A DNA stretch of 64,000 nucleotides from sequence record NC_014260.1; one strand, 5' to 3'. The notes below the pieces were generated by a model. It worked only from the letters and a program-made list of their open reading frames with translations, was not told the origin of the DNA and did no database searches. Of this stretch, positions 3,194 to 32,917 are shown piece by piece; position 1 is the first letter of the stretch; each line of letters opens with the position of its first letter. The stretch comes from Escherichia phage IME08. A program made the position numbers and the translations under genes.

Positions 3194-4768
3194 ATGGCAA
3201 ACTTTAATACAATATTAAGTTTTCTTAAGCCATGGGCTAATGAAGACGAAAAAGAATATAAACAACAAATTAATAACAATTTAGAGTCTGTCACCGCACC
3301 TAAGCTTGATGATGGCGCTCGCGAAATTGAGACACAAGAGCAAAATATTCCTTATAATGCTCTTATGCAACAGATGTTTGGTAGTAATGAGCCTGAAGTT
3401 AAAAATACCAGGGAACTTATTGATACCTACCGTAATTTAATGAACAACTATGAAGTCGACAACGCCGTACAGGAAATTGTGTCTGACGCTATTGTCTATG
3501 AGGATGATAAAGAAGTAGTTGCATTGAATTTAGACGGGACAGAATTTAGCCAAGCAATTAAAGATAAAATCTTGGCCGAATTCAGTGAAGTTTTAAACCT
3601 TTTAAATTTCCAACGTAAAGGCACTGACCATTTCCAACGCTGGTATGTAGACTCAAGAATTTTCTTTCATAAAATTATAAACCCTAAAAAAATGAAAGAT
3701 GGCGTACAAGAGCTTCGTCGCTTAGACCCGCGCCAAGTCCAATATATTCGTGAAATCGTTACACGTATGGAAGATGGTGTTAAAATTGTAGACGGATATC
3801 GTGAGTTTTTCGTTTACGACACAGGTCATGAAAGCTATTGCGCAGATGGACGCATTTATTCAGCCGGGACTAAAGTTAAAATTCCTCGTGCTGCTGTGGT
3901 TTATGCCCATTCAGGATTATTAGATTGTTGTGGTAAAAACATCATTGGCTATTTGCAACGTGCTATTAAGCCTGCAAACCAGCTTAAATTGATGGAAGAC
4001 GCAATGGTCATCTACCGTATTACCCGTGCTCCTGACCGTCGTGTATTTTATATCGATACAGGTAATATGCCTTCACGTAAGGCTGCAGCACAAATGCAAC
4101 ATATAATGAACACGATGAAAAACCGTGTAGTGTATGATGCTTCGACAGGTAAAATTAAAAACCAACAACACAATATGTCCATGACTGAAGACTATTGGTT
4201 GCAACGTCGTGACGGTAAAGCGGTTACAGAAGTTGATACAATGCCAGGTGCTACTGGTATGAGTGATATGGATGACGTTCTTTATTTCCGCACAGCACTT
4301 TACCGTGCACTGCGTATTCCAGAATCACGTATCCCTAGTGAATCTAATTCAGGTGTTATGTTTGATGCCGGTACAGCTATAACTCGTGACGAGTTGAAAT
4401 TTGCTAAATGGATTCGCCAGCTCCAAAATAAATTTGAAGAAATTTTCTTAGACCCATTAAAAACAAACCTCATTCTTAAAAAGATTATTACAGAAGATGA
4501 GTGGGAAAGAGAAATAAATAATATTAAAGTTACGTTCAATCGTGATAGCTATTTCAGTGAAATGAAAGATGCGGAAATCATGGAACGCAGAATCAATATG
4601 CTAACGATGGCTGAACCATTTATTGGTAAGTACATTTCACATCAAACGGCTATGAAAGATTTCCTTCAGATGACTGACGAAGAAATTAATCAAGAAGCTA
4701 AGCAAATTGAAGAAGAGTCTAAAGAGGCTCGTTTCCAAAACCCAGATGAAGAAGAAGAGGATTTCTAA
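3194..4768 (+). CDS. 20: Portal vertex protein gp20
   Basis: 524 aa, T4 gp20 length and order. Confidence 0.95.
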
Positions 4769-5037
4769 TGGAAGATTTAATCGAAGCTATTAAATCAAAC
4801 GACCTCGTAGCAGTTCGTAAAGCAGCAGCCCCGCTTATCGAATCTCGAGTAGCCGCTTTGATTGAAGCCCGTAAAGCAGAAATTGCTCGCTCCGTTATGA
4901 TTGAAGGCGAAGAAGCTGACGAAGATGACGAAGACGAAGATGACAAAAAATCCGATAAAGCAGATAAGAAAGACAAAAAAGAATCTGACGACGCGGATGA
5001 AGGTGATGATGGCGATGACGACGAGGACGATGAATAA
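4768..5037 (+). CDS. 67: Prohead core protein gp67 (acidic C-terminus)
   Basis: 89 aa with poly-acidic tail; ATGA overlap with gp20 stop; T4 order. Confidence 0.8.
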
Positions 5038-5465
5038 TGTTCCTTATCCCTGATGATTACGAATTAACTCTTGAAAGCGTAGAGGCCAAAATTCTAGAAG
5101 CACAGGGACGTTTTGCTATTCTTTCTGAAGCACTCGAGAAAAGCGATATAAATAATCTTGTAGAGAACATGATTGCTGATGGTGATATCGATACAGCTAT
5201 TGCCATTGCTTCTTTGAATGAAAATATGGCTCTTAACGAATTTATCGTTAAGCATGTCTCCTCTAAAGGTGAGCTTACTCGTACTAAAGATATTAAAACC
5301 CGTCAACGCAATGCTTATCAAACGACTGGGTTATCTAAAGCAAAACGCCGTCAGATTGCTCGCAAAGCATCTAAAACCAAACGTGCTAATCCGTCTACTC
5401 AAGTACGTGCTGAACGTAAGCGTAAAAAAGCTCGTTCTAAACGTAAAGCCTTTGGACTTAACTAA
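5037..5465 (+). CDS. 68: Prohead core protein gp68
   Basis: 142 aa, basic C-terminus, T4 order. Confidence 0.8.
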
Positions 5466-6100
5466 TGAAACCTGAATTGCTCATCGAACATTGGGGACAA
5501 CCAGGTGAAATTATCGATGGGGTTCCTATGTTGGAATCTCATGATGGGAAAGATTCTGGACTTGCCCCAGGCCTTTATATAGAAGGCATTTTCATGCAAG
5601 CCGAAGTAGTTAACCGTAATAAACGTCTTTACCCAAAACCTATTTTGGAAAAAGCCGTTGCCGATTATATGGCAGAACAAGTTGCTACTAAACAAGCTTT
5701 AGGAGAATTAAATCATCCGCCTCGTGCTAACGTCGACCCTATGCAAGCCGCTATTATTATAGAAGATATGTGGTGGAAAGGTAATGACGTTTATGGACGT
5801 GCACGTATCATCGAAGGTGACCATGGTCCAGGTGATAAACTAGCTGCAAATATTCGAGCAGGTTGGGTTCCTGGTGTTAGTTCTCGTGGTCTTGGTTCTT
5901 TAACCGAAACCAACAAAGGATATAAGCGTGTAAACGAAGGTTATAAATTAACCGTCGGTGTTGATGCAGTATGGGGACCATCTGCTCCTGATGCTTATGT
6001 AACTCCAAAGCAAATTACAGAATCACAAACGGTAGAAACCGATACCAGTGCCGATGACGCCTTTATGGCTCTCGCAGAGGCCATGAAAAAAGCGTTATAA
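5465..6100 (+). CDS. 21: Prohead core scaffold protease gp21
   Basis: 211 aa; T4 order and length. Confidence 0.9.
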   Translation: MKPELLIEHWGQPGEIIDGVPMLESHDGKDSGLAPGLYIEGIFMQAEVVNRNKRLYPKPILEKAVADYMAEQVATKQALGELNHPPRANVDPMQAAIIIEDMWWKGNDVYGRARIIEGDHGPGDKLAANIRAGWVPGVSSRGLGSLTETNKGYKRVNEGYKLTVGVDAVWGPSAPDAYVTPKQITESQTVETDTSADDAFMALAEAMKKAL

Positions 6101-6103
6101 ATA
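6096..6103 (+). promoter_or_regulatory. Late promoter TATAAATA upstream of gp22
   Basis: Exact TATAAATA overlapping gp21 stop. Confidence 0.55.
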
Positions 6104-6130
6104 TTATTATCTAAACAACAGGACTACAAA

Positions 6131-6946
6131 ATGCTTAAAGAACAACTGATTGCCGAAGCACAGAATATTGATGCTTCCGTTGCTCTTGATAGTATTTTCG
6201 AATCAGTTAATATTTCTCCGGAAGCAAAAGAAACTTTCGGCACTGTATTCGAAGCTACCGTCAAGCAACACGCCGTGAAACTGGCTGAATCTCACATCGC
6301 TAAAATCGCTGAAAAAGCGGAAGAAGAAGTTGAGAAAAATAAAGAAGAAGCTGAAGAAAAAGCCGATAAGAAAATCCAAGAAGCTGCCGGTCGTTTCCTT
6401 GACCACGTTGCTAAAGAATGGATGGCTGAAAACCAGCTGGCTGTTGATAAAGGTATTAAAGCCGAACTGTTCGAATCCATGTTGATGGGTATGAAAGAAC
6501 TGTTTGTTGAACACAATGTGGTTGTTCCAGAAGAAGCAGTAGATGTTGTTGCTGAAATGGAAGAAGAATTGGCTGAACAGAAAGCCGAAACCGCTCGCCT
6601 GTTCGAAGAAGTTGGTAAGCGTGATTCTTATATCAATTACGTACAGCGTGAAGTTGCTGTTACGGAAGCAACCAAAGACCTGACCGAATCTCAGAAAGAA
6701 AAAGTTAGTTCTCTGGTAGAAGGCATGGATTATTCCGATGCATTTGGTAAAAAAATTAGCGCTATCGTTGAAATGGTTAAAGGTCAGTCTGACGTTGAAA
6801 AACCAATCACCGAAGCCGCTATAAATAAAACTGAAGACGATGCTGCAGCACTGAATTACATTTCGGAAGCAGTTGAAGAAAAAGGCGCTAAGCCTACCCT
6901 GTCCTTCGCGGACCTGTCTGCAATCGCAGCATCACGAATTTCTTAA
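6131..6946 (+). CDS. 22: Prohead core scaffold protein gp22
   Basis: 271 aa, acidic coiled-coil-rich, T4 order. Confidence 0.9.
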   Translation: MLKEQLIAEAQNIDASVALDSIFESVNISPEAKETFGTVFEATVKQHAVKLAESHIAKIAEKAEEEVEKNKEEAEEKADKKIQEAAGRFLDHVAKEWMAENQLAVDKGIKAELFESMLMGMKELFVEHNVVVPEEAVDVVAEMEEELAEQKAETARLFEEVGKRDSYINYVQREVAVTEATKDLTESQKEKVSSLVEGMDYSDAFGKKISAIVEMVKGQSDVEKPITEAAINKTEDDAAALNYISEAVEEKGAKPTLSFADLSAIAASRIS

Positions 6947-8585: not shown

Positions 8586-9257
8586 CTATAACTTATAGCA
8601 ATCGTCAAATTGAGGCCTTGTTTCTTTAATCCAATTACGAATGGTAGCTCCGGTAACATTAAAAAATTCGGCGGCGGTTTCGTATCTGTCAAATCTATAT
8701 CCTTTAATCATTATATCAACAAATACAAATTTCTTACCTTTATTAGAGTTCTCTCTAATTTTGGCTTTATGTTCTTCCGATAGTTTCCTACCTTTAAGAT
8801 GAGAATCCCTATTCTCATAAAACTTTTTATTAGCTATAGATTTGTTTTCTCGGTGCTCTTTGGATTCTTTAGAACCTGTTTTCGATTTAGACATTTTGGC
8901 CCTTACTTCCTTGGTCATACCTGCCTTGGTCTTTTCGGATAACATCTCACGATACCCAGGTTCCTGTAAAGCTACTATAACAGGATTACCCTTACCACCT
9001 AAAGCTGCATTATAAGTATCTGTTCTCATAACAAAAGCCTCGTCAACTAGTTCGGCTTCCTTAGCATACATCTCTTCAGATGTTTCGAAATTGAAAAGGA
9101 TTTCCTTTTTAAAATTCTCTAAGCCGTATTTCTTTATGGATTTTACTATGTTAACCCCGGAGCCCATATAAGAATCATTAACATCTGTAGTGGCATGGGC
9201 TCCAACATAAATCTTGTTATTAATGAGATTGGTTATTTTGTAAATTAAATAATTCAT
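8586..9257 (-). CDS. segD: GIY-YIG homing endonuclease, SegD-like (free-standing mobile gene)
   Basis: N-terminal LIYKITN...NKIYVGA GIY-YIG motif; T4 segD occupies same position between 23 and 24. Confidence 0.8.
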   Translation of the reverse strand: MNYLIYKITNLINNKIYVGAHATTDVNDSYMGSGVNIVKSIKKYGLENFKKEILFNFETSEEMYAKEAELVDEAFVMRTDTYNAALGGKGNPVIVALQEPGYREMLSEKTKAGMTKEVRAKMSKSKTGSKESKEHRENKSIANKKFYENRDSHLKGRKLSEEHKAKIRENSNKGKKFVFVDIMIKGYRFDRYETAAEFFNVTGATIRNWIKETRPQFDDCYKL

Positions 9258-9628: not shown

Positions 9629-10909
9629 ATGGCAAAGATTAACGAATTACTGCGCGAGTCAACAACTACTTCTAGCAACTCATTGGGTCGCCCTAATCTT
9701 GTTGCTTTGACCCGTGCTACAACCAAATTGATTTACCGTGATATTATTGCTGAACAACGTACTAGCCAGCCTATTGCTGCATTGTATGGTGTCAAATATC
9801 TTACCCCTGATAATGAATTCAGTTTCCAAACTGGTGCTGTTTATGGCGGTGAAGTTGGTTCTAAAGACCGTGAAACTATCCCAGAACTCACAGATAAGGC
9901 CCAGGCGATTGCCAAGGGTGAATATTTCAAGTATCAGAATATTGTTTATAAGGCTCTTCAAGCAAGCCCACTCGCATCCACTAGCGCTACAGAATTGGCT
10001 GATGCCCTTCAAGAAGGTTTGGTGTCATTAACATGTCGTCTGGTTCCTGATGCGGCTCACACAGAGAAATTCGAAGCAGGTGATGTTGAAATTAGCAATG
10101 CAGTATTCCAGGTTAATAAATGGAACGCACCTGTTAAGTCTCGTAAACTTAAAACCGCTTTGACTGTAGAACTAGCCCAAGACATGGAATCCAATGGCTT
10201 CGACGCCCCTGCATTCTTAGAAGACCTCCTGGCTACAGTAATGGCAGATGAAATTAATAAAGACGTTCTGCAGTCTCTAATAACTGTATCTAAACGCTAT
10301 AAAGTTACCGGTGTATCTGATAACGGTATTGTCGATTTGTCTTATGACAGTGCTCCGGAATCTGCACGTAAACTTTATGAAATGGTTTGTGAGATGAATT
10401 CTGAAATTCAGAAAACCACTTCTTATTCAGGTACGTTTGTTGTCGCATCTAGTCGTGTAGCTGCAATGCTTGCTGGTTCAGGTTGGTTGAAACATAAACC
10501 AGAAGATGAAGCTTGGCTCCCAGAAACCGCTTATGGTTATTTGATTAACGGATTGCCTGTATTCTGTGATGTTAATAGTCCTTTAGATTATGTTATCGTG
10601 GGCGTTAAAGAAGATTACGGCGGTAATGAAGTGGTTGGTTCTATTTTCTATGCTCCGTATACCGAAGGTCTGGATTTAGACGACCAAGAACATGTTGGTG
10701 CCTATAAAGTTATTGTAGACCCTGATAGTTTGCAACCGGCTATTTCTCTGATGGTTCGTTATGCACTTTCAGCAAACCCATATACCGTTGCTAAAGATGA
10801 TAAAGAAGCTCGTGTTATAGACGCAACTAATATGGATTTAATGGCAGGGCAGAGTAACATGTCTTATCTGCTTGGTGTTAAACTTCCTCCAATTATTTAC
10901 GAGGCATAA
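9629..10909 (+). CDS. 24: Head vertex protein gp24
   Basis: 426 aa; close to recalled T4 gp24 (MAKINELLRESTTT...). Confidence 0.95.
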   Translation: MAKINELLRESTTTSSNSLGRPNLVALTRATTKLIYRDIIAEQRTSQPIAALYGVKYLTPDNEFSFQTGAVYGGEVGSKDRETIPELTDKAQAIAKGEYFKYQNIVYKALQASPLASTSATELADALQEGLVSLTCRLVPDAAHTEKFEAGDVEISNAVFQVNKWNAPVKSRKLKTALTVELAQDMESNGFDAPAFLEDLLATVMADEINKDVLQSLITVSKRYKVTGVSDNGIVDLSYDSAPESARKLYEMVCEMNSEIQKTTSYSGTFVVASSRVAAMLAGSGWLKHKPEDEAWLPETAYGYLINGLPVFCDVNSPLDYVIVGVKEDYGGNEVVGSIFYAPYTEGLDLDDQEHVGAYKVIVDPDSLQPAISLMVRYALSANPYTVAKDDKEARVIDATNMDLMAGQSNMSYLLGVKLPPIIYEA

Positions 10910-12193
10910 ATGAAAAAGATTAATGCATTAATACAAGAATCAACTTTGACGGCGGCCAACCAGGTCGCCCGTCCTAATCTTCTTTCATATACCCAGGCAA
11001 CTAATAAAAGAATTTTTAAAGCCCTTGTTGCTGAACAAAAAACTACTCAACCTGTTGCAGCATTATATGGTGTCCGTGTTTTAAACCCAGACGATAAAAT
11101 GACTTATCTCGGCGGAGCCACTTTTGCAGGCGAAATTGGTATGTTCGAACGTAAAAACATTCCTGAATTCACCGATAAAGACGAAGCATATGCTGTTGGT
11201 GATATGTTCCAATTCGAAAGTGTGGTTTTCAAGGTATTAGAAGCTTCTCCGTTTGCAGGAACAACTGAAACCGATTTGGGCGAAGTTATTTCAGAAGCTA
11301 TTGCCGCAGGCCATATTCGTATGATGTCTGATGCAGCCTTTACCAATAAATTTGAAAAAGGCCATCCTGAGATTGCTGAAGCAGGATTCCGTATTGATAA
11401 GTGGCAGACTGAAGTTAAATCGCGTAAACTTAAAACTTCTTTGACTGTAGAACTGGCCCAGGATTTAGAATCCAACGGGTTTAATGCACCAGACTTTATA
11501 GACAATATTTTGGCTATTCAAATGGCCGAAGAAATTAATAAAGACGTATTACAGTCCTTAATTACGGTAAGTTCTCGTTTTAAAGTCCAAGGAGTTTCCG
11601 AGAAAGGCGTCTTGAACTTAACAGACCCACAATATGATAACGCCCAAGACCGAGCGCGTACCTTGTATTACTATATGTGTGAAATGAATTCTGCTGTTCA
11701 ACGCCAGACTTCGTTTGCAGGTACTTATGCAGTAGCTTCTTCTCGTTGCGCCGCTATTTTAGCTGCATCCGGTTGGGTTGAGAAAAAAGAAGACCAAGAC
11801 GAATTAGCTTATGGCATATTAAAGAACGGTCTACCACTTTATGCTGATATGAATAGTCCGTGTGATTATGTTATTGTCGGTGTAAATGCTCAGATGGGTG
11901 AAGGGCAGACGGTCGCATCTTTGTATTATGCGCCTTATACGGAAGGGCTCGAAGAAGTTGATGATGAAGGTGATACTTCAGTAGGTGAATTCAAGGTTAT
12001 TGTAGACCCAGATTCATTGCAACCTACCATATCTTTATTGGCTCGGTATGCATTGACTGCGAATCCTTATACCGTCGCTAAAGACGACAAAGAAGCTCGT
12101 ATTATTGACGGTGCGGATATGGACAAAATGGCTAATCAAAGTCAATTGAGTTCTTATCTTGGTGTTAAACTTCCTCCACTTGAAAAAAGCTAA
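10910..12193 (+). CDS. gp24 paralog (second vertex-protein-like gene, diverged)
   Basis: 427 aa colinear with gp24 along full length but substantially diverged; start ATG directly follows gp24 stop. Confidence 0.9.
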   Translation: MKKINALIQESTLTAANQVARPNLLSYTQATNKRIFKALVAEQKTTQPVAALYGVRVLNPDDKMTYLGGATFAGEIGMFERKNIPEFTDKDEAYAVGDMFQFESVVFKVLEASPFAGTTETDLGEVISEAIAAGHIRMMSDAAFTNKFEKGHPEIAEAGFRIDKWQTEVKSRKLKTSLTVELAQDLESNGFNAPDFIDNILAIQMAEEINKDVLQSLITVSSRFKVQGVSEKGVLNLTDPQYDNAQDRARTLYYYMCEMNSAVQRQTSFAGTYAVASSRCAAILAASGWVEKKEDQDELAYGILKNGLPLYADMNSPCDYVIVGVNAQMGEGQTVASLYYAPYTEGLEEVDDEGDTSVGEFKVIVDPDSLQPTISLLARYALTANPYTVAKDDKEARIIDGADMDKMANQSQLSSYLGVKLPPLEKS

Positions 12194-28270: not shown

Positions 28271-28277
28271 CAAAAAA

Positions 28278-28295
28278 GGAGAGCGTATGCTCTCC
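28278..28295. terminator. Bidirectional terminator after gp54
   Basis: GGAGAGC-GTAT-GCTCTCC hairpin between convergent genes. Confidence 0.6.
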
Positions 28296-28305
28296 TTTAG
28301 GGGGT

Positions 28306-28596
28306 TTACTTACGGAACGAAATGAAACCTGCCGCCGTCATTAGCGGTTGCTTTTTAACAAATACCGTAACTGAAATAGGAGCTTCGGATTCAAGCTGAC
28401 CAGTCACTACACCATTAAAGATATTTTCAGTTTGTTCCGGCTGAGAAAAGTTCTCAACAGGGCGGATATCAAATTGCTTATCTTCACCGAAAACTCGACG
28501 CAATTCATTACCAATGGCACTGTCAAACTCTTCGGAAGCAGGGATAACGTTTTCAACTACCAGTTCTTGACCATTAAAACGGAATGCAGATTTCAT
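28306..28596 (-). CDS. Hypothetical protein (alt-downstream small gene)
   Basis: 96 aa ORF with GAGGAG RBS and early promoter upstream. Confidence 0.5.
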   Translation of the reverse strand: MKSAFRFNGQELVVENVIPASEEFDSAIGNELRRVFGEDKQFDIRPVENFSQPEQTENIFNGVVTGQLESEAPISVTVFVKKQPLMTAAGFISFRK

Positions 28597-28624: not shown

Positions 28625-28654
28625 ATAGTACCACATCCATGTGGTGTTGTAAAC
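28625..28654 (-). promoter_or_regulatory. Early promoter GTTTAC-N18-TACTAT
   Basis: Minus strand GTTTACAACACCACATGGATGTGGTACTAT. Confidence 0.5.
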
Positions 28655-30777
28655 TACATTTTGAATTTATTTGGCAGAGCAGAGATATCCAAAGATGCAG
28701 CAAGGATTTCCATAGCCTCGTTGCTTTCAGAAACAGATTCACTAACCAAGAACTGTTTAAAGCCATCCATCGGACGAACTTCACCGGTTTCCATCAGATG
28801 GTCGCCGTCATAAACAGATTCACTGAGCTCTGAAGGAGACATCACAGTAGCTTCCATAAGATATTTGTGAGATACCCTATCATTCATAGCAAAAGCCGCT
28901 ACTTTATCAACCTTCATCAATAATCCGCGCGGAAGGATAATTTCTGCTTCTTCAGCGTATTCTGTAAGGTCACCAGGAGCGATAACTTTAACTGCTTCAG
29001 CACCTCGAATAACCATACCAATTTCAGCAATTCTATCCGCAGGGCCTTCAGGTGCAATTGGATTACCAAACTCGTCTTCTTCCCATTCTACCTCTTCATC
29101 GTCGACTTCACCTACATCAGATGAACTACCGCTAGCCAATTTAAACAACTCATCAGCGGAGGATAAAGAACCTTCACCACCAACAAAAACGGCTTGGTTG
29201 TCGAGGGCCATATAATTTTTACCGAATTCACCAAAGATGTTAGGCTTTAGTGAGGCGGACACAAAGTTCTTAAAGTAAAATGTTTTGTTATCGATATTAT
29301 GACGCAGAATTTTGTATGGCAAATCCTGACCACGATACAAAATAGTACCCTTAGGAAGTTTAATACCCTTAGTAAATGCCGAGTCTAAATCCTTAATCAA
29401 TCTAATAGCCGTTGTATTGTTTTCGGATTCAGGTTTACCTAAAAGGAATAAGTTCATAGGAGCATATTCAGCTGCGCAATATTCAATAATAGCATTGCTT
29501 TCGTCTTTGGTTAGGTCCTTAGGTTTAATGAGCTCGCCTGAATAAGCATATGCATCACCAATAGAATCGTTAATCAGTTTATAAACGGCTTCCATAGCGA
29601 AAGCAATTCGAGATGCCTTTTCTGAAGGGGAGCCATTAAAACGGGCACTCAGGTTATTAACAATTCTCTTAATAATATCCAGACTATTGGTAGTATTGAT
29701 TTGCGAAAGGCCGCTTAAAAGTCTATCGACTTCTGTATTAAAAAATGCCATATTTTTAGAGTAAATTTCAAACCCTTGTTTATCTCTATTAGCATAATTT
29801 AGTTTAAATTTACTATCAGTCATTAAAGCATGTGTGAGAGCAATAGTGTATCTAAAGTTAGCAAGGTCCTCGCTCTTAGATTTAAACTGAGAAGCCTGGC
29901 GCATTTTGGTAATAGCACCTTTTTTAAAGTTCTGACTAATCTGTTCAATACCTTCGTTCTCAGGGCCTTCGGCAGTGTGAACCGGTACAGAAGCTTCAAA
30001 CTCGTTATAAACCTGCAATTCTTTAGGGGACAAAGTTTCAGGCTCAGCAGTAGAATACTGCGCGGCAGCCGCCATACGACGGGAAATCTTAGTACGAGTA
30101 ATGACAGCCTTATCGGTACGTTTCTCTTCAACCTGTGCAATAGATGCCGCTACGGCTTCGACCTTACTTACGGCCTGGCCGGTTTTCTTAGAAACATACA
30201 CTTCGCCGACTTTAGAATCGACTTTGGTATAAAGGTCGGCATCAATTTCAGGCATGCCTTTGATATCTTCGATATTGGAACCACGACGTACTAAAAGAAC
30301 GTAGGTATGTTTTCCACTGAACTGGAACATGCTATCAACAACTTTAAACTTACCGCCAGTACGAGCCATCGCTAAACGTGCCAATACGCGCTGAACAGTA
30401 GGACCCTTACCTTTCATTTTCTTGGTAGGGAAACGGAATAAAACTGCATCCATTTTAAGTTTGTTTACTTGTTCGTATACAGTATCGAAAATGGTATTCA
30501 GTGTACCAAGTGGGTCAGAACCAAGGCCACCCTTAAGTTCAGCCGGAGCACCCTTGCTTGACAAACTCATTAGAATAACATGAATGTATTTGTCGCCTGG
30601 CTTAACCATTTTAATAGCGTCTCCTTGAGACGCATAAGATACCATACGAGCAACCAGGTTATCATTACCTGGTGCATGGATAGAGAAAATCTGTGGAATA
30701 CCGGAACCCGGTTTAAGATTTGTTACTGGATAGTTTTTAGCGGAATCACTATCAAAAACCTCGTTTAAATTTTCCAT
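28654..30777 (-). CDS. Alt-family mono-ADP-ribosyltransferase paralog 1
   Basis: 707 aa; conserved N-terminal roughly 240 aa shared with neighbour; ART-like motifs YRGQ, FVSAS, EEAEI. Confidence 0.8.
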   Translation of the reverse strand: MENLNEVFDSDSAKNYPVTNLKPGSGIPQIFSIHAPGNDNLVARMVSYASQGDAIKMVKPGDKYIHVILMSLSSKGAPAELKGGLGSDPLGTLNTIFDTVYEQVNKLKMDAVLFRFPTKKMKGKGPTVQRVLARLAMARTGGKFKVVDSMFQFSGKHTYVLLVRRGSNIEDIKGMPEIDADLYTKVDSKVGEVYVSKKTGQAVSKVEAVAASIAQVEEKRTDKAVITRTKISRRMAAAAQYSTAEPETLSPKELQVYNEFEASVPVHTAEGPENEGIEQISQNFKKGAITKMRQASQFKSKSEDLANFRYTIALTHALMTDSKFKLNYANRDKQGFEIYSKNMAFFNTEVDRLLSGLSQINTTNSLDIIKRIVNNLSARFNGSPSEKASRIAFAMEAVYKLINDSIGDAYAYSGELIKPKDLTKDESNAIIEYCAAEYAPMNLFLLGKPESENNTTAIRLIKDLDSAFTKGIKLPKGTILYRGQDLPYKILRHNIDNKTFYFKNFVSASLKPNIFGEFGKNYMALDNQAVFVGGEGSLSSADELFKLASGSSSDVGEVDDEEVEWEEDEFGNPIAPEGPADRIAEIGMVIRGAEAVKVIAPGDLTEYAEEAEIILPRGLLMKVDKVAAFAMNDRVSHKYLMEATVMSPSELSESVYDGDHLMETGEVRPMDGFKQFLVSESVSESNEAMEILAASLDISALPNKFKM

Positions 30778-30780
30778 TAT

Positions 30781-32865
30781 TTACCCTTGGATGAATTTTT
30801 CTGGGATGTCATAGAGGTCTATGCATGAAGCCAAAAGAGGCAGTACATCAAACCGTGTAGATTTGACAAATGAATCAAAAGATACAGGGCTTTCGGAAGT
30901 ATCGAAGTCATCTTGATATACGACCAACTCGCCGGTTTCCATTAGTACGTCACCATCATACACCACAGATTCTTGAAGCTCATCTGTCGTCATAACTTCA
31001 GCTTGGATGAGTTTTGTATTATTAGATGTTGTTCCGTCATTATTAGAAGCATCTGTTATTTTATTAACTTTGACCATCAATCCGCGCGGTAGAATAACTT
31101 CAGCTTCTGTTGCTATTCCGAGACTTCCTGGATATACAACATTGACTTTATGAGCCCCATCAATCGCCCATCCTATTTGAACTTTAACGTAATCAGGATT
31201 TTCTTTATACGCTCTTATTTCATTAGGATTAATAGTTATTCCTTCTTCATTTTTATCGACTGTCAATTCATCGCGAACTTCCGGTTCTAAAAGACCAATA
31301 CCAGCGTGTGTAACACCAAATCGTCCAAAAATGATAGGGGTTAAAGAAGTAGATACAAAATTTCTGAAATAGAACACTTTATTTTTAACTAGTGCTTCGT
31401 ATATAGGAGCAGTCATACTCTGTGCACGATAAACTGTGATGCCTTCTGGTATACGGTCACCGTTTTCAAAAGCAGAATCCAAATTATTGACTGCAGATTC
31501 AATAGATTTTTCGTTCATTACATCATAGTTATGAGGATTATAGCGTCCTAAAAGAAGATTATTGATGTCTGTATATCCAGAACCACAATATTCTCTGATG
31601 CCGCGCTTTTGTGATGGGGTATATTTAGAGCCCTCACGAGCAATAGTAATATCGACCATAATACCGCCGCCCACACCAGCAAAACTATATACGCGTTTTT
31701 TAATGAATTTGGTCTTGGCTGCTTTCCACTTGGACTCGGTCAATTCATTCCAGAGGTCGTCGGGTTGGCCTTTACGAGTTTTGTTATGCTGGGCCAACCA
31801 TTCGCCTTTGTATTCTTCGAAAACGGTATTAATAACAGAGGCATATTTTTCTAGAGCTTTAACAGATGTCAAAGGTTCGTTTTTGATGGCTGTAAGAATT
31901 TTCTCTTTAATTTTCTCTTGGATTTCACCTATACCATGAAGAGGAAACATTTTATAATCGTAATGCAACTCTTCAGCAGTGCCTTCGGCTACTATATTAG
32001 CCACCTTATTTTTAGCCGCAGGAGAATTGTTATTAGTAACCATTTCCTGAGCCTCAGGGATTAATGGAGCTGTTGCCGGTTTATTAAAATCTACGGCAGT
32101 TGCTTCATATTTCTTAAACAGTTCACTTTCATTACGATAAGATTCTAACGATTGACTTGCTGCAATGGCACGACGAGAAATCTTAGTCTTGGTTATAACC
32201 ATTTTATCAGTGCGACGTTCTTCAACTTTAGCAATACTGCCGGCAATAGCAGTTTCTTTAGTAACCTGCACACCTTCTTTTTTAGAAATATAAACTTCAC
32301 CGACATCAGAATCTACCTTAGTGTATAATTCGGCATTAATTCCTGGCATACCTTTGATATCTTCGATATCAGCTTGTTTACGAACTACTAAGATATAAGT
32401 ATGTTTACCAGTAAATTGGTACATAGCCGGAACTACTTTAAAACGTCCACCGGTTTTCTGTGCTACCAAACGTTGGATAATACGTTGGACAATAGGGCCT
32501 TGTCCTTTCATTTTCTTGGTAGGAAAACGGAACATGATGGCATCCATACGAAGCTTTTTAACTTGTTCGAATACTACGTCGAAAATGGTATTAATGGCAT
32601 CAATAGGAGTAGGGCCTAAGCCGCCTTTAAGTTCAGCAGGAGAACCTTTAGCCGAAAGGCTCATAAGGATAACGTGGGCATATTTGTCACCTAATTTAAC
32701 TTGTTTAATGGCATCGCCTTCAGAAGCGTAGGACACCATACGCGCCACTAATTGAGACTCTACGTCTCCAATCTTCCAAATCTGTGGTACTTTAAGTTTA
32801 GGGTTCAAGTTTACTGTAGGCAGTGTGCCTTCGGACTCAAACACTTCATTTAATTGTTCGGTCAT
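30781..32865 (-). CDS. alt: Alt-family mono-ADP-ribosyltransferase paralog 2
   Basis: 694 aa; motifs YRAQ, FVSTS, TEAEV; adjacent to DNA ligase gene region as T4 alt. Confidence 0.8.
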   Translation of the reverse strand: MTEQLNEVFESEGTLPTVNLNPKLKVPQIWKIGDVESQLVARMVSYASEGDAIKQVKLGDKYAHVILMSLSAKGSPAELKGGLGPTPIDAINTIFDVVFEQVKKLRMDAIMFRFPTKKMKGQGPIVQRIIQRLVAQKTGGRFKVVPAMYQFTGKHTYILVVRKQADIEDIKGMPGINAELYTKVDSDVGEVYISKKEGVQVTKETAIAGSIAKVEERRTDKMVITKTKISRRAIAASQSLESYRNESELFKKYEATAVDFNKPATAPLIPEAQEMVTNNNSPAAKNKVANIVAEGTAEELHYDYKMFPLHGIGEIQEKIKEKILTAIKNEPLTSVKALEKYASVINTVFEEYKGEWLAQHNKTRKGQPDDLWNELTESKWKAAKTKFIKKRVYSFAGVGGGIMVDITIAREGSKYTPSQKRGIREYCGSGYTDINNLLLGRYNPHNYDVMNEKSIESAVNNLDSAFENGDRIPEGITVYRAQSMTAPIYEALVKNKVFYFRNFVSTSLTPIIFGRFGVTHAGIGLLEPEVRDELTVDKNEEGITINPNEIRAYKENPDYVKVQIGWAIDGAHKVNVVYPGSLGIATEAEVILPRGLMVKVNKITDASNNDGTTSNNTKLIQAEVMTTDELQESVVYDGDVLMETGELVVYQDDFDTSESPVSFDSFVKSTRFDVLPLLASCIDLYDIPEKFIQG

Positions 32866-32887: not shown

Positions 32888-32895
32888 TATTTATG
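32888..32895 (-). promoter_or_regulatory. Late-promoter-like CATAAATA upstream of Alt paralog 2
   Basis: One mismatch to TATAAATA, about 22 nt before ATG, followed by AGAGGA RBS. Confidence 0.3.
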
Positions 32896-32901
32896 CCAGA
32901 A

Positions 32902-32917
32902 AAGGCCCGAAGGCCTT
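32902..32917 (-). terminator. Hairpin terminator downstream of the small gene at 32916-33089
   Basis: AAGGCC-TTCG-GGCCTT on minus strand followed by TTTCT. Confidence 0.45.

Follow-up and report, generated by a model that had tools for sequence, protein, structure and literature searches.

Two intact, tandem alt paralogs and an exchangeable middle-plus-ART cassette in Escherichia phage IME08

What might explain why Escherichia phage IME08, a T4-type coliphage of the JS98-like Dhakavirus group, has two intact, adjacent genes for Alt-family ADP-ribosyltransferases (ARTs), whereas T4 has one intact gene and a stump? The locus was analyzed in a window of 64,000 nt from the phage genome record (NC_014260.1), and all features of the alt locus given here by their window positions are on the (-) strand. 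An ORF listing recovered the 694-aa altA gene (30781..32865) and the 707-aa altB gene (28654..30777) with exactly the lengths and overall span (28654-32865) of the first-pass annotation, which had described them as adjacent. They are separated by 3 nt (30778..30780; TAA-ATA-ATG at the junction), and annotation coordinates indicate the same 3-nt spacing in T4 (alt/alt.-1), RB10 and MX01. The sequence AAGGG inside the last altA codons resembles a Shine-Dalgarno sequence ahead of altB. The upstream neighbor, as in T4, is an alt.1 homolog (57 aa, PF24647, 32916..33089); alt.-3 (DUF5498, 28306-28596) lies downstream, and a strong terminator at 28275-28298 closes the altA-altB-alt.-3 unit. The position of altA is that of T4 alt, adjoining alt.1 and the DNA ligase gene 30, and the order gp54/alt.-3/altB/altA/alt.1/gene 30 is common to T4, JS98, IME341 and RB10. 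Scans of the entire window for tRNAs and Rfam families gave no matches.

The two proteins are paralogs, exhibiting 40% identity overall (BLASTP, E 5e-146). The proposal that a conserved N-terminal region of about 240 aa gives way to divergent sequence is borne out by segment comparison: identity is 65-67% over the first ~240 aa and ~34% afterwards, with 11% in the middle, 35-53% in the ART region and 23% in the tail. Both match PHROG 802 (Alt-like) over their full length (AltB 1-707, E 4.5e-251; AltA 1-693, E 5.9e-262). AltA covers positions 3-195 of the 196 in Pfam profile PF03496 (ADPrib_exo_Tox; E 8e-36), and AltB matches the same profile with an interruption (E 5e-18); the two scores, 65.5 and 123.6 bits, compare with a gathering score of 23.4. 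Precomputed annotations of Alt homologs list PF26846 alongside PF03496. The PDB sequence search returned no solved Alt structure. The AF2 model of AltB (pLDDT 80.8) matches Vis, C3bot, Certhrax, VIP2 and CDTa in Foldseek (best E 4e-7), with E values of 4e-7 to 1e-4 and target TM scores of 0.56-0.69 for the first four, so that the ART fold is found by PF03496 in both proteins and by Foldseek in AltB. Each consists of a family-specific N-domain of ~235 aa, a helical middle, a C3/VIP2-type R-S-ExE ART domain and a short C-terminal tail. Both are colinear with T4 Alt from end to end, including the N-terminal domain, share its domain order, and are encoded at the same genomic site, between baseplate gene 54/alt.-3 and alt.1/gene 30. 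They also have in common with T4 Alt an N-terminal (L/I)-x-E and a C-terminal ...KF.. ending, although AltA is only 49% and AltB ~41% identical to it and the N-domains just 41-46%.

[quoted passage not shown] In AltA these are Arg480 (31426..31428; YRAQ, residues 479-482), S505-T-S507 (31345..31353; FVSTS, residues 503-507) and E587-A-E589 (31099..31107; T-EAEV, residues 586-590), the last followed by ILPRG. The AltB equivalents are Arg482 (29332..29334; YRGQ, residues 481-484), S507-A-S509 (29251..29259; FVSAS, residues 505-509) and E610-A-E612 (28942..28950; E-EAEI, residues 609-613). The arginine, first serine and both glutamates are invariant among AltA, AltB, T4 Alt, ModA and ModB. In a family alignment of 74 sequences, AltB S507, E610 and E612 are invariant and R482 and S509 are at least 90% conserved. 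AltA Arg480 and ExE also align with the YR arginine and ExE of iota toxin Ia and BECa; the register of S-x-S with solved toxins is that of AltA's full-length Pfam match as a whole rather than residue by residue. Arg, Ser-x-Ser and Glu-x-Glu thus stand in register, as in other members of the R-S-E clade. Paralogy, PF03496, PHROG 802 and the conserved R-S-ExE residues fully support the original identification of two tandem Alt-family ADP-ribosyltransferase genes. The ART fold and active site are shared with C3bot, Vis, Certhrax, VIP2, iota Ia, CDTa, BECa, ModA and ModB, but the C3-like and binary toxins and the two Mod enzymes possess no Alt N-domain, helical middle domain or tail; the toxins are secreted and ModA and ModB are early-expressed phage enzymes, and none is packaged in the head, unlike Alt.

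The ART core of AltA, residues 419-628 (30982..31611), is shared with the Tequatrovirus alt of the RB10/T6/RB32 type: nucleotide identity to RB10 alt is 84-98% in the core and 38-74% elsewhere in the gene, dS is 0.32 in the core and saturated in the flanks, and the encoded core is 96% identical in amino acids with a dN/dS of 0.08. Over the whole protein, AltA is 67% identical to RB10 Alt. The core, only 64% identical to that of T4 Alt, is the RB10/T6 allele and not the T4 allele. Compared with JS98, a fellow Dhakavirus, the N-domain and tail of AltA are 98-99% identical, whereas the middle-plus-ART cassette is another allele (37% and 61% amino acid identity, dS saturated). The group of MX01, NC-G and fDHCT2 shares the IME08 AltA cassette allele, and a 1301-nt query (window 30900-32200) is matched at 80-90% by 313 phage records. 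Among pairs with N-domains at least 90% identical, cassette identity spans 25%-99%, and comparison of T4 alt with RB10 alt gives the same breakpoints as in AltA. The 3' breakpoint falls at YDGDxLMETGE, invariant columns that T4 Alt also shares (AltA residues 636-646, 30928..30960; AltB equivalent 28780-28812). Alt is thus a genus-specific N-domain and C-terminal tail around an exchangeable middle-plus-ART cassette, an additional result of this analysis, and we came across no statement of such a modular view in the literature searched. The three-alt Dhakaviruses MX01, QL01, WG01 and AnYang have altA and altB orthologs 95-96% identical to those of IME08, but also a third, middle copy absent from the IME08 window, which combines an AltB-like N-domain (90%) and an AltA-like tail (63%) with a unique cassette.

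What do two such enzymes do? We think it probable that the intact, co-oriented paralogs encode late, head-packaged, injected ARTs with different targets, at a locus that exchanges cassettes. What the analysis shows directly is homology, the ART fold, conservation of the catalytic residues and of gene order, purifying selection on both genes, and the occurrence of both Alt lineages in two genera; the T4-like biology is drawn by analogy with T4 Alt, an NAD+--arginine ADP-ribosyltransferase that is packaged in the head and injected. AltA and AltB would enter the host with the injected DNA and mono-ADP-ribosylate arginines of host proteins. The targets of AltA would be the T4/T6-Alt set (RNA polymerase alpha and others), and those of AltB would be others, selected by its unrelated helical domain and its acidic loop. 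Different targets are plausible from sequence, given how the two proteins diverge in their middle domains and loops and given the purifying selection that acts on each gene (dN/dS 0.03-0.08 for altA and altB within Dhakavirus). Because middle-plus-ART behaves as an exchangeable cassette, the locus would amount to a small arsenal of effectors for injection, reshuffled by recombination. In its broadest form, which we propose tentatively and at slightly less than an even chance, this reading has T-even-type phages carry, at the alt locus, between one and three injected effectors that recombine as an array. In each, a genus-specific head-delivery domain of ~235 aa and a short tail would surround a swappable cassette, with breakpoints fixed at invariant KISRR and YDGDxLMETGE, an arrangement reminiscent of polymorphic toxins but applied to virion cargo. 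Cassettes would move between genera, so that the classical T4 Alt would be just one allele, and paralogs and alleles would differ in their host targets, possibly including defense proteins.

The last point leads to the strongest alternative, that both Alts are mainly counter-defense effectors against host toxin or immunity proteins and that cassette turnover reflects an arms race and not transcription reprogramming. T4 Alt is reported to ADP-ribosylate the MazF toxin. The hypervariability of the cassette between near-identical N-domains, the exchange of the ART core between genera, and an alt copy number that varies from 1 to 3 among relatives all favor this alternative, as does the parallel with the T-even internal proteins, in which a conserved capsid-targeting sequence precedes varied anti-restriction cargo (PMC3012670). 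IPI-III follow the same logic of a conserved delivery element, diverse injected cargo and a variable locus; however, they have no sequence relationship to Alt, and their element is a cleaved peptide of ~10 residues, as opposed to a folded Alt domain of ~235 residues that would stay on the mature protein. The strong conservation of the AltA ART core between IME08 and RB10 fits a housekeeping target such as RNA polymerase equally well, and we regard a mainly counter-defense role as rather unlikely, if a serious competitor.

Is AltB an active enzyme? The duplicate might instead be decaying or have lost catalysis, serving perhaps as a purely structural internal head protein, en route to a stump like that of T4. 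T4 has indeed lost most of altB: its alt.-1 and alt.-2 are 95-96% identical to residues 1-56 and 62-116 of RB10 Alt2, so T4 retains a truncated AltB of the first ~116 codons. The AltB ART domain also holds an acidic insertion between the S-x-S strand and the pre-ExE strand (residues 541-582, 29032..29157; 15 of the 42 residues are D or E), which divides its PF03496 match into two stretches. The insertion is predicted to be disordered, with pLDDT <50 at 552-565 and 573-578, and could alter or regulate AltB activity. Against decay, the ORF is full-length with R482, S507/S509 and E610/E612 intact, dN/dS is 0.05-0.08 in comparison with JS98 and MX01 altB, and an intact ortholog exists in another genus, in RB10. 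Where phage records with an Alt match were sampled evenly, about one-third carry an AltB-type match (~52% identity, two places per record). A dead AltB is therefore very improbable. On sequence grounds, altA is the ortholog of T4 alt, and altB that of JS98 altB and of the full-length RB10 gene labeled "alt.-2". Past residue 264, AltB is closer to RB10 Alt2 than to any other protein compared, and the two share a KFKM terminus. RB10 (Tequatrovirus RB3) has the tandem pair, the 3-nt junction and a related middle domain in its second Alt, although not the long acidic insertion. Both Alt lineages thus occur in Tequatrovirus and Dhakavirus.

The N-domain (AltA residues 1-234, 32164..32865; AltB residues 1-236, 30070..30777) is the same module in both proteins, and we propose that it targets them to the head. 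By analogy with T4, it would bring AltA and AltB into the prohead scaffolding core, where the prohead protease would trim them after an N-terminal L-N-E. AltA has the sequence LNE/V near its N-terminus, in agreement with L-x-E, the pattern of T4 prohead protease (gp21) cleavage sites. A gp21 homolog is present in the window at 5465-6100, and the L-M-E within YDGDxLMETGE is a possible second site. In T4, gp21 removes an N-terminal peptide from gpAlt, of which ~40 copies are found in the scaffolding core, and a review calls protein localization to the head core "mysterious" (PMC9958956). An HMM search with the N-domain of 1.84 billion representatives found just 72 clusters, nearly all with an ART, and among these there was no clear case of the N-domain joined to non-ART cargo, which would be proof of delivery. 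Four of the 72 lack a Pfam ART, and three of those four show degenerate S-x-S/ExE-like motifs by eye. One cluster without a Pfam ART, P0175 (541 aa), has an unrecognized C-terminal part. That the N-domain is a second, GNAT-like acyltransferase that would make Alt bifunctional, rather than a packaging module, we consider very improbable. N-domains group by genus and not by paralog: that of AltA is 98% identical to JS98 AltA, 65-67% to AltB and 46% to T4 and RB10 Alt, and identity between Dhakavirus and Tequatrovirus is 45-46%. Codon comparison of altA with altB gives a saturated dS, which rules out recent gene conversion as the source of their N-domain similarity; genus-specific constraint or ancient conversion are possible explanations.

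Nothing but the tandem layout speaks for an assembly artefact or for a very recent duplication confined to IME08. Such an origin is refuted by at least 30 independent phage records that cover at least 80% of the 5.2-kb region with the same arrangement, and by the saturated dS, and its chance is close to nil. The tandem alt pair is already known: genomes almost identical to this one label both genes as Alt, and a 2006 paper (PMC1524935) recorded duplicated alt genes among T4-like phages. Dhakavirus IME341, with 97.6% DNA identity to the window, is annotated with two Alt genes, and JS98 (GenBank record EF469154) and JS10 carry altA/altB annotations; all three have the same genes, order and spacing, with JS98 AltB 97% identical to that of IME08. 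The first-pass suggestion of an extra copy relative to T4 consequently fails, since the pair is annotated in these phages and is also found in Tequatrovirus RB10. Its statement that T4 has a single alt holds for intact genes but overlooks the truncated second copy; in spirit, the tandem pair is standard for the genus of T4, as RB10 shows, but not for T4's own intact gene set.

T4, the model behind all Alt knowledge, is a degenerate case that lost its second enzyme. Its Alt ART allele differs from that common in T6, RB32, RB10 and IME08, and Alt keeps its two conserved ends while its effector part is swapped as a cassette. For these reasons, Alt target results from T4 need to be checked before they are transferred to other T-even phages. 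A large share of therapeutic-type coliphages have AltB-type enzymes, which appear, by analogy with T4 Alt, to form a second, uncharacterized class of injected ARTs.

By the same analogy, altA, altB and alt.-3 would be transcribed late as one unit. No exact T4 late promoter TATAAATA was found upstream of the alt genes, only CATAAATA, the motif with one mismatch, 22 nt before the altA ATG (32888-32895); there is no late-promoter motif ahead of altB, and sigma-70 and terminator scans found nothing beyond the terminator after alt.-3. A GGCC-TTCG-GGCC hairpin followed by a T run can be read from the sequence after alt.1 (32898-32917), and a conserved terminator upstream of alt has been described (Nolan et al. 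2006).

The window carries altB (707 aa, 28654..30777) and altA (694 aa, 30781..32865) on the minus strand with an intergenic gap of 3 nt, and the ORF listing places both exactly where the first-pass annotation had put its tandem 707- and 694-aa Alt-family pair. AltA and AltB are clear paralogs (40% identity, E 5e-146 by BLASTP). Each consists of an N-domain, a helical middle, an ADP-ribosyltransferase (ART) domain and a short C-terminal tail, and identity between the two is 65-67% over the first ~240 residues, ~11% in the middle, 35-53% in the ART and 23% in the tail, which agrees with the conserved ~240-aa N-terminus and later divergence described before. The motifs claimed for the pair are likewise present (YRAQ/YRGQ, FVSTS/FVSAS and EAEV/EAEI-ILPRG in AltA/AltB).

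Both proteins pass the gathering threshold of Pfam PF03496 (ADPrib_exo_Tox); the match to AltA spans the whole profile, and that to AltB falls into two stretches because of an insertion of 42 residues, acidic and predicted to be disordered, between S-x-S and ExE. Both also match PHROG 802 ('Alt-like RNA polymerase ADP-ribosyltransferase') end to end (E ~1e-251 and ~1e-262). The Arg, the two Ser and the two Glu are invariant when T4 Alt, RB10 Alt and the paralogs from JS98 and MX01 are aligned with the pair; once T4 ModA and ModB join the alignment, the Arg, the two Glu and the first of the Ser are still invariant. Across 74 members of the family, in AltB numbering, S507, E610 and E612 never vary, and R482 and S509 reach 90% conservation or more. 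When Alt is compared with solved toxins by HMMER, its YR arginine and its ExE fall on the equivalent residues in iota toxin Ia and BECa. The catalytic residues therefore align with known ART motifs, and the ART assignment stands. We found no Alt structure in the PDB; the AlphaFold2 model of AltB (pLDDT 80.8, pTM 0.73) has three regions, an alpha/beta N-domain (~14-230), a helical region (~250-420) and an ART (~420-650), and its Foldseek matches (lowest E 4e-7, target TM 0.56-0.69) are Vis, C3bot, Certhrax, VIP2 and CDTa.

Is the second gene an extra copy relative to T4, as first proposed? The same pair is annotated in Dhakavirus relatives and intact in RB10, and T4 retains a stump of the second gene. 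The pair was correctly identified but is not new: it is already known and ordinary for Dhakavirus-type phages. Over the 5.2-kb alt region, Enterobacteria phage vB_EcoM_IME341, whose record labels each ORF 'Alt RNA polymerase ADP-ribosylase', shares 97.6% identity with the window, and about 30 further Dhakavirus (JS98-like) genomes share 90-95%; the pair is named alta and altb in JS98 (GenBank EF469154) and JS10, and MX01, QL01, WG01, AnYang, C6 and others have three consecutive alt genes. Nolan et al. 2006 listed full-length alt duplication in 44RR, partial duplications in RB49 and 44RR, and T4 alt.-1/alt.-2 (PMC1524935). In RB10, a Tequatrovirus like T4, alt is followed 3 nt later by a 685-aa second alt labelled 'alt.-2' (RB10 locus, 3813-5870). 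In T4 (NC_000866 locus, 5066-5451), alt.-1 matches residues 1-56 of this second Alt at 95% identity and alt.-2 matches residues 62-116 at 96%, whereas the two reach just 57-62% against the Alt of T4 itself. The statement that T4 has a single alt thus holds for intact genes, of which there is one, but overlooks the 5' stump of an AltB-type gene. The T4 record calls alt.-1/alt.-2 an 'old duplication of the first part of alt'; judged by these identities, they are better described as what is left of an AltB-type gene that was deleted. Searching by tblastn with the ART half of AltB gave matches at 1,750 places in 1,220 phage records. Sixty records were sampled at even spacing along the ranking; 19 of these (rows H44-H62) come from Escherichia phages ~166-170 kb in length, RB10 among them, together with two short partial records, and they have ~52% identity to the AltB ART half at two places each. 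The tandem pair is widespread and probably ancestral rather than peculiar to IME08, and T4 becomes the degenerate case for the locus, a useful side result.

By Nei-Gojobori estimation, altB of the window has dN/dS of 0.05-0.08 when compared with JS98 and MX01, and altA has 0.03-0.07 when compared with IME341 and MX01; these low values, together with the intact motifs, argue against a decaying copy. Past residue ~264 AltB is nearest to RB10 Alt2, at 35-83% identity per 30-column block against 0-43% for A-type proteins (middle and ART blocks), and both end in ...KFKM; T4 and RB10 Alt are the counterparts of AltA, and share with it the C-terminus ...KF(I/V)QG. The A/B split is therefore older than the Dhakavirus-Tequatrovirus split. 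The N-domains, however, cluster by genome, A and B being 67% identical in the window and in RB10 but only 41-46% across genera. What might explain this likeness? The explanations that remain are genus-specific constraint, for example a common capsid-core partner, and ancient conversion; recent gene conversion between altA and altB was rejected, dS between the N-domains being saturated.

The middle and ART together behave as a cassette. Residues 1-234 and 628-694 of AltA are 98-99% identical to JS98 AltA (dS 0.17-0.36), whereas residues 235-627 are only 37-61% identical, with dS saturated. Comparison with RB10 alt gives the reverse pattern: the ART core (residues 419-628, window ~30982-31611) is 84-98% identical in nucleotides and 96% in protein, its dS of 0.32 equalling the intra-Dhakavirus background level, and the remainder of altA is 38-74% identical. 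On these comparisons AltA has a mosaic history. A 1,301-nt query (window 30900-32200), wider than the ART core and spanning it, hits 313 phage records, T6, RB32, RB27 and partly T2 among them, with nucleotide identity of 80-90%. Within one genus, T4 and RB10 alt are 93-100% identical in nucleotides at residues 1-240 and 616-682 and 43-80% in between, with the same two breakpoints as in AltA, which coincide with the invariant KISRR (~residue 230) and YDGDxLMETGE (~residue 640). Among 74 database proteins, N-domain pairs at least 90% identical have cassettes from 25% to 99% identical. The middle of the three MX01 alt copies (MX01 locus, 4282-6327) is a chimera: its N-domain resembles that of AltB (90%), its tail that of AltA (63%), and its cassette neither (18-35%). 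Such a make-up is what unequal recombination inside the conserved ends would give, and it points to unequal crossing-over there as the likely source of alt copy-number change. The cassette architecture is a second useful side result; neither it nor the reading of T4 as a degenerate case was found stated in the literature searched. Two rare proteins have the Alt N-domain, one (P0172, 1142 aa) with ~600 additional C-terminal residues and the other (P0175, 541 aa) without a recognisable ART, and each of them may represent cargo other than an ART joined to the proposed delivery domain.

A GC hairpin and T run follow alt.1, and CATAAATA, one mismatch from the T4 late motif TATAAATA, lies 22 nt upstream of the altA ATG; the altA upstream region has no exact copy. 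altB starts 3 nt past the altA stop, with AAGGG within the final altA codons, and the 3-nt junction recurs in T4, RB10 and MX01. Downstream of altB, alt.-3 (DUF5498) precedes a strong terminator that closes the unit. In the whole window TATAAATA occurs 16 times against 6.1 expected, a count reached in 0 of 100 shuffles, mostly on the plus strand in the structural gene block at 1-10 kb.

Both N-termini read M(T)E(Q/N)LNE|VF, and LNE fits the (L/I)-x-E pattern of sites for the T4 prohead protease gp21. The L-M-E inside YDGDxLMETGE could be a second gp21 site, removing a tail of ~50 residues; T4 Alt is processed from 76 to 70 kDa, which such removal would fit. In T4, the scaffolding core contains ~40 gpAlt copies, from which gp21 removes a small peptide at the N-terminus (PMC9958956).

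The analysis establishes the homology, fold and motifs of the pair, the selection on it and its evolutionary history, while the account of expression timing, packaging, cleavage, activity and targets is inference. AltA and AltB would be made late, packaged in the head and injected as mono-ADP-ribosyltransferases. Since AltA has the common T6/RB10-type catalytic module, it probably modifies RNA polymerase alpha and other T4-Alt-type targets; AltB, given its unrelated helical domain and acidic disordered insertion, probably acts on others.

The window, in which no tRNA genes or Rfam matches were found over its 64 kb, has a second tandem paralog pair of a head component: two gp24-like capsid vertex protein genes (426 and 427 aa; 9629-10909 and 10910-12193, plus strand) with 56% mutual identity. 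JS98 annotates the same pair; in T4, gene 24 is present once. A 223-aa ORF (8586-9257, minus strand), the positional analog of T4 segD, lies between the genes for gp23 and gp24. On its sub-threshold Pfam matches to SegE GIY-YIG and NUMOD3 it is probably a seg-type homing endonuclease, and since the corresponding place in JS98 is occupied by no more than an 88-aa hypothetical ORF, it looks like a mobile insertion.
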